A DNA stretch of 64,000 nt from NCBI GenBank assembly GCA_965217775.1, contig CBDCJH010000002.1, positions 1,472,001-1,536,000 on the forward strand. The letters run 5' to 3'. The position numbers and the translations under genes are program-made. This document shows, piece after piece, positions 41,885 through 45,160 of this stretch (the first letter of the stretch is position 1; each line of letters begins with the position of its first letter). Below the pieces are notes generated by a model. It was not told the DNA's origin. It saw nothing but the letters and a program-made list of their open reading frames with translations, and did no database searches. Origin of the DNA: Acidobacteriota bacterium (GTDB lineage: Bacteria; Acidobacteriota; UBA6911; RPQK01; JAJDTT01).

Positions 41885-41991
41885 GGTTTCTCCAAGCTGG
41901 CCATAGACAGATGTGATTTTTTCGCCGGAAGGGGCTCACCCGGCAGAAAAAAGAGGCCCAGCGGTGTGTCCGGCGCGGCAAGACGGGAGTT

Positions 41992-42013: not shown

Positions 42014-42788
42014 CTTTGGTTCCCCTCGTGTGAAAGAGAGCAGAACAATGCAATCGAGGCTTGCGCCAGCAACAAGGGGATCATGCCCGCTGTGGTCTTC
42101 CTCAGCCATCTGCTTTTATGGCTGGTGAGGCTTTCCATGATTCCGATCTCCTTGAGGTGACTCAGCCAGGCGTGGAAGACGCTTGCAGTCGCCGTCGAAT
42201 CGCCGGTCTCCTGCCCCCCGTGGAACATCCCCACAGAGGGCAGGAGGTACGTATCAATGAATGTGAATTTCTCGCCGGAATCGGCTCACCGGGTTAACAG
42301 CCGGACAAGGGGCCACGTCTGGTGCGGGAAACCGGATGTCCATGGTCCGCTTTCGAGTCCGAAAATGTACTTTGTTCGTACTCGAGGGGACCGGGAGAAG
42401 GGGATTGTTACATTCTCGTACTCGTAGAGTCTTCAACCGACCTCGGGTCGGGCACGGGAACTCTGCTCATGGCTGCCGCTCAGGCCCTGACGCAGCGAAG
42501 CGAAAGAGATTCCAGGCCACGCAGCACGATGCTATTGCGAAAGCGTGGCCGCTCGTTGAGAAGATTGATCTGCGGGAAGCGTTCGAGCAGTGTCTCCAGG
42601 ACGATCCGGCCTTCGAGACGCGCCAGAGGGGCGCCCAGGCAATGATGGATACCGCGTCCGAATGCCAGGTGGTTTCCTTCTCCGCGCTCGAAATCGAGCC
42701 TGTCAGGGTTCTCAAAAACATCCGGATCCCGGTTGGCCGCGCCGAGCAGGACGACGATGTTCTCGCGCTCACGCAAAGGGAAACCGTT

Positions 42789-44032
42789 GGGGATTATATA
42801 CGTAAGTGCCGAGAATTCAGGCTGATGGGTTACAATTCCGACCATGAAAGGCCACGCAACTATCCAGTGCAGAGCCAAGCTGTCCAAGGGTGGAATCCGG
42901 CGGTTGGACCGGGTGAGGTCCATCCTGAATCGGCTGTACAACGCTGCACTGGAGGAACGCAGAACGGCCTGGGAATCCGAGCAACGCGGCGTGACCCTGT
43001 ACGATCAGATGAAGGGGTTGACCTCCCAGAGGAAGGACGATCCGGAGGGGCTCGGGTCGGTGGCGGTCAAAGCGGAGCGTGGGATGTTGATGCGGTTGGA
43101 CCGGGCCTTCAAGGCGTTCTTCCGTCGCTGCAAGGCGGGGGAGAAGCCGGGGTATCCTCGATTCCGGCCCATTGCGAGGATGGAGACCATCGACGTCGTC
43201 GACCCGAAGGCGACCCTGGTGAAGAAGCGCGCTCGGGGCTACGCCATCCGGCCCAAGGGCTTCCCGACGATCCGGATCTTTCCGTCCCGGCCGTTGCCGG
43301 ACGGATGCCCGTTGAAAGCGTTGCGGATTGTCCGCAAGCCGAACCGGGTGTATGTGGACCTGACCTACGAGGTGGAGAAGCCGCCGCTACCGAAATGCGA
43401 GTCTTCGGTAGGGATCGACCTGGGCGTCCGCAAGCGAGCGGTGCTGTCCACGGGTGAGAGGATCGAACGGAATAGACGGGACTGGGCGGGGATCCGAAAG
43501 CAGCAGAGAAAGGTCTCCAGGTGCAAGAAGATTTCCAAGACCAGACGGAAGCGGATCGTACAGCTATCTCGGCTCCGTCACCGGGAATCGGTCCGAAACC
43601 GTAATGCCTGCCATCGTCTCTCCAGCAGGATCATTCGTGAGCACGGTCTGATCGCTGTGGAGAAGCTGAACATCCAAGGGATGGTAACGAAGGGCTCGAA
43701 GAAGAAGGGGCTGAATCGAGAAATACTGACGCAATCATGGGGGCTTCTGCGGAATCAACTCCAGTACAAGGCAGAATGGGCCGGTCGGAAGTTCGTAGAA
43801 GTGAATCCCGCATTTACCTCGCAGGACTGCCACCGGTGCGGCGCCCGCCACGATCCAGGACGGAGCGAAACCTTCCGGTGCAGGGCCTGCGGACTTGGAA
43901 TGGACAGGGACCACAATGCCGCCCTGAACATTCTCAGGGCTGGGGTTCTTGCCCTGGGCACCGGAACGTATCTCGTTGGGGAAAGCGTGGTGCCAGAACT
44001 GTATGCCAAGGGCACTTAGGTATATAAGCCCC
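42789..44032 (+). mobile_element. Non-autonomous TIR element (IS1595/ISNwi-like ends) carrying only tnpB; 8-bp TSD AAACCGTT
   Basis: Left TIR GGGGATTATATACGTAAGTGCC (42789-42810); right TIR reverse complement GGGGCTTATATACCTAAGTGCC (44011-44032); AAACCGTT at 42781-42788 and 44033-44040. Confidence 0.9.
42844..44019 (+). CDS. tnpB: RNA-guided endonuclease TnpB (IS200/IS605 OrfB-like)
   Basis: LYNAALEER HTH, GEKPGYPRF, RuvC-I GIDLG, RuvC-II IAVEKL, zinc finger CHRC..CRAC, RuvC-III DRDHNAALNI. Confidence 0.95.
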   Translation: MKGHATIQCRAKLSKGGIRRLDRVRSILNRLYNAALEERRTAWESEQRGVTLYDQMKGLTSQRKDDPEGLGSVAVKAERGMLMRLDRAFKAFFRRCKAGEKPGYPRFRPIARMETIDVVDPKATLVKKRARGYAIRPKGFPTIRIFPSRPLPDGCPLKALRIVRKPNRVYVDLTYEVEKPPLPKCESSVGIDLGVRKRAVLSTGERIERNRRDWAGIRKQQRKVSRCKKISKTRRKRIVQLSRLRHRESVRNRNACHRLSSRIIREHGLIAVEKLNIQGMVTKGSKKKGLNREILTQSWGLLRNQLQYKAEWAGRKFVEVNPAFTSQDCHRCGARHDPGRSETFRCRACGLGMDRDHNAALNILRAGVLALGTGTYLVGESVVPELYAKGT

Positions 44033-45160
44033 AAACCGTTTACTTCGCAGTCCTCGAGCACGCGACGCATACTCATTTGTACCGGTGAGTCGAAGCGTAG
44101 CAGCTCCTCGACCGCCGCCGGAACCAAACTCGGATTCTCTCTAAGTTGTTGAAGCTGATCCGGATGACGCAAAAGGGCCAGCATGCTGTTGCCAATCATG
44201 TTGGTCGTGGTCTCATTGCCGGCAATCAGGAGCAGGCGCAGCATATTCAACGTTTCGCGCTCAGTCAGTTGGTTGCCCTCTTCCTCCGCTCGAACCAACG
44301 CGCTCACGATGTTGTCCTGGGGCGCCACGCGGCATTCCTTGATGATCGGCCGGAAATAGCCATCGAAGGCCTCGGAGGTGGCCTCGGCGACCGCGCGATC
44401 ACGGTCGTCTATCGTCGGCTCCAGAAGGCGCGCACGCTGATCCGACCAGATCTTGAATTGGGCGCGGTCCTTTGGCGGCACGCCCAGCATCTCGGCGATG
44501 ACGGTCACCGGCAGCGGTTGGGCCACTGCCTCCATGAGATCGAAGCCGGTGGGATCGTCGATGTCATCCAATAACTCCCCGAGAAGACTTCCGATGCGCG
44601 GCTCCAGGGCGTTCACGGCGCGTGAGATCGCCTTTGCGCGGATCGTTGCTGAAGCGCCTGTGGTCTCGCAGGATGGCATCCACGTCCGCGTGGCGCGTGA
44701 ACACCCAGGCATGCATCAGGCGGCTCCGGTGCACTGGGTCCCGTTCGCGTAGCGCCGCGTAGAGAGGATAGGGATTCTGAACGGTGCCGCTCGACAACGG
44801 ATTGTATGCGACACCGCTCTCCCAACGTTCACGCATGAGCATCGTGCGTGCGGCGACTGTCCGTATCGCGGTGCGAATTGCGTGTGTCATCGACCCCTCA
44901 GTGCGAGTATCCGAGTAAATCTTGCAAGGCGTTCCTGGCAGCCGCCAGGAATTTGTCTAATACAGGCATGCCGAAAGAAGCTTACACTTTTTGCCAAGTA
45001 TCGAGATCTTGCCAATATCACCCTCGATGTTGGCGATTTCTCGTCTGGCGGCCTTCCGGTTTTCGGGTCCCGGAAGTACGCCCGGGGGACCAGACTTCAG
45101 TGACTCCCACAGACTCATTGTTTCGGGCGATCGGTCGAATTTCCTGTCTTCAGAGGAGAC

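Follow-up and report, generated by a model that had tools for sequence, protein, structure and literature searches.

What does a TnpB nuclease use as its guide when its gene ends inside the terminal inverted repeat (TIR) of a DDE-type transposon? This question is raised by a tnpB gene in a 64,000-nucleotide stretch of an Acidobacteriota genome (contig CBDCJH010000002.1); the whole stretch is called the window below. A preliminary description of the locus had placed a putative omegaRNA across the 3' end of tnpB and into the TIR, and had offered two options for the guide. The first was the target site duplication plus flanking DNA, with a relaxed target-adjacent motif (TAM) or a target-biased transposase; the second was the TIR itself, as a fixed guide against the ends of sibling insertion sequences (ISs). 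A direct check found its statements about the sequence to be correct throughout. Judged from sequence, we consider it probable that tnpB lies in an IS1595-type element whose right TIR is part of the omegaRNA scaffold, that the guide is taken from the duplication and the flank beyond it, and that a TAM filters the insertions that survive.

An IS1595-type element that carries only tnpB

The element occupies positions 42789-44032 of the window (1244 bp; features lie on the + strand unless stated otherwise). According to the open reading frame (ORF) list and the sequence, tnpB (42844-44019, 391 aa) is the sole gene inside it. The left TIR, GGGGATTATATACGTAAGTGCC, is at 42789-42810 and the right TIR, GGCACTTAGGTATATAAGCCCC, at 44011-44032. 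The stop codon of tnpB (TAG, 44017-44019) lies within the right TIR, as had been described. An inverted-repeat search returned arms of 24 nt with 92% complementarity, of which 2 nt belong to the flanking duplication. This 8-bp duplication, AAACCGTT, is found on the left at 42781-42788 and on the right at 44033-44040. Two related genomes (G004 and G001) carry the P450-like gene that the element splits, uninterrupted and with a single AAACCGTT, in the contexts ...caaaggg|AAACCGTT|tacttcgc... and ...cacgggg|AAACCGTT|cacttcgc..., respectively. Because of these empty sites, insertion of the element with an 8-bp target duplication is proven at this locus and not inferred.

The ends of the element led to its probable partner. 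Allowing up to three mismatches, the end motif occurred 35 times in the window genome (17 forward, 18 reverse) and a reversed control pattern did not occur at all, so the motif is not a product of chance. The hits beyond the tnpB copies define a second element, a 1762-bp IS of which the genome has four copies; their ends are identical, and both read GGGGATTATATACGAAAGTGCC. The left TIR of the tnpB element agrees with these ends at 21 of 22 bases and the right TIR at 19 of 22. The IS encodes a transposase of 334 aa that matches DDE_Tnp_IS1595 (PF12762, E 1.8e-38) and, more weakly, Zn_ribbon_IS1595 (PF12760, E 2.6e-5, 24.5 bits, just under the curated cut-off). With near-identical ends and such a transposase in an autonomous IS of the same genome, the earlier assignment of the TIR to a DDE-type (IS1595) transposon was borne out. 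Perfect 8-bp duplications flank the autonomous IS at 17 of the 29 loci examined. A fifth copy of the IS is 1760 bp long and has its transposase frame split in two, and a 1531-bp relative is also present. These ends presumably belong to the ISNwi1 subgroup of ISfinder (ends ggnnatTAT).

A DDE transposase gene is absent from the ORF list of the window element. Since it carries tnpB and no transposase gene of its own, the element is a non-autonomous IS1595-type transposon and not an IS in the strict sense. A tnpB and a transposase gene between one pair of ends were not found in the five genomes examined, and the 334-aa IS1595-family transposase most likely moves the tnpB element in trans. Membership of the IS200/IS605 family (including its IS1341 type) was rejected because the element has TIRs and an 8-bp duplication; that family is defined by the lack of both, by subterminal hairpins, by insertion 3' of a fixed tetra- or pentanucleotide and by a Y1 TnpA (PMC13565253). 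Mobilisation by a Y1 transposase was likewise rejected: the genome gave three weak Y1_Tnp matches, none of them beside a tnpB copy.

The right TIR lies within a covarying RNA structure

To compare homologous 3' ends, we built an alignment of 20 copies (A1) that covers the final 260 nt of the element and the adjoining 16 nt of flank; two internally deleted copies (L014 and L070) were omitted. The structure tested was one that we had named ourselves; as controls, the 3' partners were slid by 1-3 columns and the alignment was compared with 500 shuffles. Pairing was found in 96.3% of 640 cells, versus 32.7-46.6% when the partners were slid, and both-side (compensatory) changes were seen at 12 pairs versus 0-2. 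None of the 500 shuffles matched the observed values on four of the five measures, and four shuffles did so on the fifth. Among 620 cells, G.U pairs numbered 55 and A.C combinations 3. This excess therefore indicates that the structure is that of an RNA of the sense strand and not a feature of an antisense RNA or of duplex DNA. RNAalifold, run on the same alignment, recovered the nested pairing GGCACC..ACG..CGT.GGTGCC noted earlier, which is present in the window and covaries across relatives.

From 5' to 3', the predicted structure includes an upstream stem at 43898-43933 (GAAUG, 43898-43902, with CAUUC, 43929-43933), in which 97% of cells are paired and one pair is compensated, in five sequences. 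Hairpin A follows at 43935-43956 (CAGGGC, 43935-43940, with GCCCUG, 43951-43956); all of its cells (100%) are paired and three of its six pairs show compensatory changes. A three-tier hairpin at 43957-43994 is built from GGCACC/GGUGCC (GGCACC at 43957-43962 and GGTGCC at 43989-43994 of the DNA), ACGU/GCGU and UCUC/GGGA, with 99% of cells paired and six compensated pairs. Next comes a conserved linker, AGAACUGUA, at 43995-44003 (alignment columns 226-234), whose last bases (44000-44003) open a terminal hairpin at 44000-44026. The inner and core portion of the right TIR supplies the 3' arm of this terminal hairpin. The hairpin is found at the same place in all seven subfamilies despite sequence change, the 5' arm changing to match. 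Its folding z-score is -2 or below in five of the seven subfamilies, -1.2 in the window copy and -0.2 in L055. The left end of the element has no counterpart of this RNA structure, and an Rfam scan of 42500-44400 at E <= 10 returned no family.

The coding tail of tnpB also bears on this point. Among representatives of the seven subfamilies, 20 of 21 pairs showed less synonymous divergence over the final ~90 codons than over the body of the gene, as would be expected with an RNA that overlaps the coding tail. The exception was the pair L001 and L013 (G000:C2:3715342-3716512), with a synonymous divergence of 0.83 in the tail and 0.31 in the body; this reversal suggests recombination between subfamilies near the omegaRNA region. 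Overall, the covariation in these 20 sequences supports the earlier proposal of an omegaRNA that overlaps the 3' end of tnpB and runs into the TIR. It argues for a structured RNA with a pseudoknot adjoining the guide.

A terminal pseudoknot places the start of the guide

The last six bases of the right TIR, AGCCCC (44027-44032), are predicted to pair as the 3' arm of a pseudoknot with the loop of hairpin A, GGGGUU (43942-43947). Counted back from the element end, positions -6..-1 would thereby pair with -91..-86. In L064 both arms are altered together (GGGAAUU with AAUUCCC), and the change in the loop costs two amino-acid changes in TnpB. L055 has a C-G pair where the other sequences have U-G. 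Two further partners for the TIR end were tried and rejected. A UGGG at alignment columns 8-11, 258 nt upstream, was the choice of RNAalifold; it lies in a protein-conserved motif and shows no compensatory change. For a GGGGCUU at -293, L064 shows no compensation.

In the solved ISDra2 complex, positions -5..-3 of the omegaRNA pair with -103..-105 and a single unpaired base, -1A, precedes the guide (PMC10097598). The geometry of the pseudoknot predicted here matches that of the ISDra2 omegaRNA. With the terminal bases of the TIR in a pseudoknot, as in ISDra2, the scaffold would therefore end at the transposon end. By this analogy the right TIR is probably scaffold and not guide, and the predicted guide begins at, or one base into, the duplication. 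We place the proposed guide region at 44033-44052, that is, the right duplication plus flank (AAACCGTTTACTTCGC...), from the position of the pseudoknot and the ISDra2 architecture; its length is assumed. The A at 44033, which is invariant, may be the first guide base, a linker like the -1A of ISDra2 or the last base of the TAM.

These observations bear directly on the proposal that the right TIR is a fixed guide. If the scaffold stopped at about 44010, the TIR would indeed occupy the guide position, and the ends of the sibling ISs resemble it. However, the inner TIR is predicted to fold as a 3' hairpin arm, and the opposing 5' arm varies in step with it in seven of seven subfamilies; the terminal bases are predicted to pair with the loop of hairpin A, where compensatory change is seen. 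The inner TIR also differs between subfamilies whereas the scaffold is conserved, and a guide of this kind would match the element's own right end. We regard a fixed TIR guide as highly improbable. The other option of the preliminary description, a guide made of duplication and flank, is favoured by the pairing of the TIR end within the scaffold and by the orientation-specific motif described next.

Insertions carry an orientation-specific motif

The comparison covered 22 independent insertions, each oriented by tnpB, in which both ends are present and the two copies of the duplication differ at one position at most; 12 further loci without a clean pair were excluded. A conserved motif 5' of the duplications, which the preliminary description had proposed to look for, was present. 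The base before the left duplication (-1; position 42780 in the window, a G and the candidate TAM position) was G in 21 of 22 insertions, and the base at -2 was G in 15 of 22. Position 1 of the duplication was A and position 2 was A or T in all 22, while positions 3-8 varied between copies. On the right side, the mirror-image motif (T|C) was found in five of 22. In autonomous IS copies with perfect duplications, oriented by the transposase gene, a hand count gave G|A in five of 17 insertions, and in nine of 34 half-sites when both orientations were scored. The difference between tnpB elements and the autonomous IS is significant (Fisher, p = 1.7e-5), as is that between the left and right sides of the tnpB elements (p = 1.1e-6). 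Subfamilies with no difference between their two ends in the outer 10 nt (L060-L065) show the asymmetry as well.

At the occupied site the conserved G lies 9 nt away from the element. In the empty allele it is directly 5' of the predicted guide match, and it therefore takes the position expected of a TAM. The occupied site reads CCCC at this position, which would protect the element's own junction. The asymmetry of G|A is consistent with a TAM that acts as an orientation-specific filter. The orientation-specific motif would supply the target bias that the first option had called for.

The motif could also have another origin. It might arise from transposition itself, for example through an asymmetric transpososome on unequal ends or a sampling effect, with no link to a TAM; the omegaRNA may then still draw on the flank for its guide, under a TAM that is different or very relaxed. 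The autonomous IS does prefer A/T-rich 8-mers flanked by G or C, G|A occurs at a quarter or so of its half-sites as counted above, and the samples, all of one genus, are small. On the other side, the same transposase family yields the motif far less often when it moves the autonomous IS (5/17) than in tnpB elements (21/22), the right side of the tnpB elements is at background, and identical outer ends do not abolish the asymmetry. We think it unlikely that transposition alone explains the motif.

A second alternative accepts the motif and moves the guide. Here the guide would start after the whole duplication, at 44041; the duplication would be spacer or scaffold, and the left duplication would serve as the TAM in the resealed donor. 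Fanzor guide RNAs extend ~15 nt past the duplication, and both TIRs and duplications are predicted to be scaffold there (Yoon et al. 2023, PMC10711439). Constraint on the first bases of the duplication is likewise evident from the invariant A and the A or T at positions 1-2. In contrast, positions 3-8 differ between copies, hence no pairing in them can be conserved; the ISDra2 guide follows the pseudoknot after one linker base; and the end of the left duplication is only A/T-rich while the base before the duplication is conserved. A guide that starts beyond the duplication thus seems to us rather improbable.

More speculatively, TnpB-omegaRNA may do more than retain copies and help to choose the insertion site: the nuclease, or those of its domains that read the TAM, would bias or position the IS1595 transpososome such that the 8-bp staggered cut is made directly 3' of a TAM and in a fixed orientation. 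Such site choice would account for the presence of G|A even in the youngest copies (97-100% identical) and its absence as a preference in the autonomous IS. If it were true, each new copy would be born with a usable guide, and an RNA-guided nuclease would here be coupled to a DDE transposase in a primitive manner that is independent of CRISPR. We hold this idea to be doubtful.

Transcription across the right end

The element is present in contigs from sponge metatranscriptomes of two studies. Three contigs (X1 record 8, X2 record 9 and X5 record 20), each from a different copy, extend from within tnpB across the right end and 47-64 nt further into flanking DNA, as would fit transcription that reads through into the predicted guide region. 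A scan of the + strand found no terminator-like site between tnpB and the flank. On the left, the RNA-library contigs stop at 42830, 42859 and 42872 and do not reach the left TIR or the left flank. In X5, a contig that starts at 43747 has a depth of 26, compared with 9.6 upstream; this is a step in contig depth and not an RNA 5' end.

Upstream of tnpB, a -10-like box (TACAAT, 42831-42836) lies 7 nt before the ATG and is accompanied by neither a -35 box nor a Shine-Dalgarno motif; a consensus scan of the + strand returned no full sigma-70 site. By eye, a similar box is found 7-10 nt upstream of the ATG in several subfamilies. The preliminary description had taken the box to suggest leaderless expression. 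The contig that begins at 42830, if it is RNA, would argue against a leaderless start at 42844; the missing cover of the left TIR and flank speaks neither for nor against one.

TnpB, its copies and its relatives

The protein matches OrfB_IS605 (PF01385, E 9.7e-18) and Cas12f1-like_TNB (PF07282, E 1.8e-25), both above the curated cut-offs, and it aligns with the solved ISDra2 TnpB chains 8bf8 and 8h1j (E 1.4e-32, residues 26-375). RuvC-like and zinc-finger motifs appear to be kept. The motifs GIDxG, IAVExL and DRDxNA are present in all ten family members compared. We provisionally take them to be RuvC I, II and III; the alignment available was to an AI-designed nuclease. The ratio of nonsynonymous to synonymous substitution rates (dN/dS) was 0.12-0.26 in each of the 21 pairs formed by the seven subfamily representatives. 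By this measure, tnpB is under purifying selection.

The window genome (6.43 Mb in 2 contigs) contains 12 copies of the element with 94-100% identity, one of them with an insertion of ~160 bp, and four older relatives with 71-86% identity. The full 391-aa frame is kept in ten of the 12 copies, and several older copies are truncated. In one disrupted copy (L012/L015, G000:C2:4647310-4648713) the ~160 bp are inserted in tnpB; another (L011, G000:C2:2358591-2359855) has 21 extra bp and a disrupted reading frame. A full-length, intact copy, L003 (G000:C2:1186778-1188022), lacks a matching duplication, with AATGGATT on its left and AAACATAT on its right, and may reflect rearrangement between two copies or an adjacent deletion. 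An intact copy is also found on the smaller contig of the genome (~144 kb by subtraction; G000, C1:22575-23818).

It might be argued that tnpB is an inert or decaying passenger and that the RNA structure serves transposase binding or mRNA stability. The two disrupted copies among the 12, and the truncation of several older ones, could be read in this way. The low dN/dS, the motifs that we take to be catalytic in ten of ten members and the ten intact recent copies speak against decay. The excess of G.U over A.C (55 vs 3) and the ISDra2-like pseudoknot fit an omegaRNA, and the left end lacks the structure. We judge an inert passenger to be very unlikely.

Four other Acidobacteriota assemblies contain relatives of this TnpB, at 69-97% protein identity. 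In a sample of the phylum, three of 301 Acidobacteriota genomes, the window genome included, gave a match at E <= 1e-70, and all three belong to one genus. A metagenome scan, from which 80 loci were kept, gave no close relative; the best was a SAR202-type element with 45% identity. Every diverged subfamily has a terminus of the ...TATAAGCCCC type, and a matching left end together with an 8-bp duplication is found in most of them. As judged from these sequences, the association of IS1595 ends with tnpB is old and under selection.

The SAR202-type outgroup (L226, 481-1862; L069 and L161 are identical to it over the stretches shown) is a solo tnpB between unrelated inverted ends of ~21 bp (GAGACGATTTCACAAAT...) with a 7-bp duplication, TGTGTAT. 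The tail of its right end has a 7-nt complement 128 nt upstream; 113 of 2000 shuffles had one as well, which leaves this as a weak hint. A solo tnpB within TIRs in the outgroup may mean that DDE linkage is wider in this TnpB clade.

A proposed mechanism and the points against it

The observations can be joined in the following scheme. The IS1595 transposase of the 1762-bp IS would move the tnpB element in trans, without itself selecting G|A. The omegaRNA would be made from the tnpB strand; its scaffold would lie in the final ~100-290 nt of the element and comprise hairpin A, the three-tier hairpin, the AGAAC linker, the terminal hairpin with the inner right TIR, and the pseudoknot. Transcription would continue into the flank, and the read-through RNA would be processed to an omegaRNA whose guide is the right duplication and the DNA beyond it. 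TnpB-omegaRNA would then recognise and cut the unoccupied allele next to (G)G|A, sparing the occupied site with its CCCC, and recombinational repair after the cut would restore the element. A copy that lies beside a TAM and in the proper orientation would be retained or amplified; any other would be lost at its next move. The sequences themselves show the element with its ends, duplication and empty site, its copies, the partner IS, purifying selection on tnpB, the covarying sense-strand RNA structure and the asymmetry of the motif; we infer the RNA ends, the guide start, the identity of the TAM, cleavage and homing.

Several points weigh against the scheme. The sequences come from one genus, and the lineages are not fully independent. 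First, as regards the RNA structure, the terminal hairpin is weak in the window copy, and that of L055 is no better than shuffles. The pseudoknot consists of two invariant G-C pairs plus compensation in essentially one lineage (L064); the change in L055 is one-sided, and one of the pairs is a U.U mismatch in five sequences. A seventh pair (columns 179-267) fails in 12 of the 20 sequences and was dropped. Second, contigs assembled from RNA libraries carry no information on strand or ends and may include DNA. Third, the candidate TAM is short, with one strongly fixed base before the duplication as compared with the 4-5 nt of known TnpB TAMs, and with samples of 22 and 17 insertions the asymmetry could have a transposase-intrinsic or other cause. 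Finally, excision by a DDE transposase leaves a double-strand break, which makes the benefit of TnpB less obvious than in IS605 (PMC13565253), and the target duplication of Fanzors has been reported as scaffold and not as guide (PMC10711439).

Other features of the locus

The gene split by the element is cytochrome P450-like and lies on the - strand (42480-44712, from ORF translations); it is intact in G004 and G001. The part with the haem-binding motif is to the left of 42789 and the N-terminal part to the right of 44032. We take FGRGIHHCLG in the P450 fragment to be this motif. Upstream of the P450 fragment, two similar stretches about 345 nt apart (41910-41950 and 42255-42295) were spotted by eye. 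They read ...GTGA(T/A)TTT(T/C)TCGCCGGAA..GGCTCACC... and may be a repeated regulatory or repetitive extragenic palindromic (REP)-like motif.

The autonomous 1762-bp IS, as represented by L049 (201-1962; G000:C2:445385-447146), has a 110-aa ORF on the minus strand in addition to the transposase gene (L049, 414-746). It matches NA-iREase1 (E 1.4e-7) and Mrr_cat (E 2.3e-4) and is a restriction-endonuclease-like passenger.

Comparison with known systems

The general kind of element described here is already known: DDE-linked TnpBs and trans-mobilised solo tnpB genes were reported in 2023. Altae-Tran et al. described six branches of DDE-associated TnpBs (DDE-1 to DDE-6), all with TIRs, in which the 3' end of tnpB lies less than 250 bp from the element end, as well as solo tnpB genes that have the ends of transposase elements and are probably mobilised in trans (PMC10691335). 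The window element resembles these in having TIRs, a tnpB 3' end close to the element end and a solo tnpB that shares its ends with a transposase element. It departs from the element types of that paper in that its tnpB was never found with a transposase in one element, in the five genomes examined. The preliminary description had held that either guide option would follow a different logic from known TnpB homing. With DDE-linked and trans-mobilised tnpB genes in print (PMC10691335), and with TIRs and duplications already described inside the guide-RNA scaffold of Fanzors (PMC10711439), that claim was overstated.

For some more specific features we found no precedent in the literature that we searched. 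The name IS1595 does not occur in the main text of PMC10691335, and we found no TnpB with an IS1595 partner elsewhere, although the supplements of that paper may list an IS1595-linked branch. An analysis of omegaRNA structure, of guide position relative to the duplication or of target motifs was not found in the accessible portions of the same paper. Our search also returned no covariation-supported pseudoknot on the transposon terminus of a prokaryotic DDE-linked TnpB, no variable 8-bp duplication as the start of a guide and no orientation-specific target motif lacking in the cognate autonomous IS. A 2026 review, in the portions available, names ISL2, IS630 and IS1031 as the only DDE partners of TnpB and considers prokaryotic DDE-OMEGA pairs to be rare because duplications and the lack of a fixed insertion motif are a problem for TnpB (PMC13565253).

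This tnpB family offers a compact and recently active case of such a pair: it has 12 copies, its partner transposase has been identified and its empty sites are known. A TIR that is constrained by the transposase appears to be built into the omegaRNA as a hairpin plus a pseudoknot, the duplication is predicted to supply the first bases of the guide, and the surviving insertions carry an orientation-specific motif that the transposase alone does not seem to impose. A possible yield is a nuclease of 391 aa with a short G-type TAM, as predicted from the insertions.

Homing has been modelled for TnpB of the IS200/IS605 family (Meers et al. 2023). The window element shares with ISDra2 the protein family, the position of the omegaRNA over the 3' end of tnpB, a guide from DNA beyond the right end and a pseudoknot between the last scaffold bases and a segment ~90-105 nt upstream (PMC10097598). 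Unlike ISDra2, it has no Y1 TnpA, it has TIRs in place of subterminal hairpins, and it makes an 8-bp duplication; its candidate TAM is not fixed by the transposase, and its predicted guide opens with duplicated target bases. In the IS607 TnpB of ISXfa1, a nucleotide of the right flank is assimilated into the scaffold (PMC10711439). By analogy, the fixed base outside the end of the window element, the A at 44033, may belong to the RNA scaffold; ISXfa1 differs in using a serine recombinase and in having neither inverted ends nor a target duplication (PMC10711439).

The closest parallels in architecture are with Fanzors, in which bases of the TIR needed by the transposase are 'recoded' into the guide-RNA scaffold, and duplications likewise (Yoon et al. 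2023, PMC10711439). Like the window element, Fanzor1 and Fanzor2* elements are non-autonomous, have TIRs and a duplication, encode the nuclease only, include a TIR in the scaffold and have an RNA that runs into the flank (PMC10711439). They differ in being eukaryotic or viral, in that the duplications are predicted to be scaffold, and in that pseudoknots are reported to be absent in Fanzor1 (PMC10711439). The window element, in comparison, has a bacterial host, a variable duplication of which only the first 1-2 bases are fixed, and a terminal pseudoknot that is supported by covariation.

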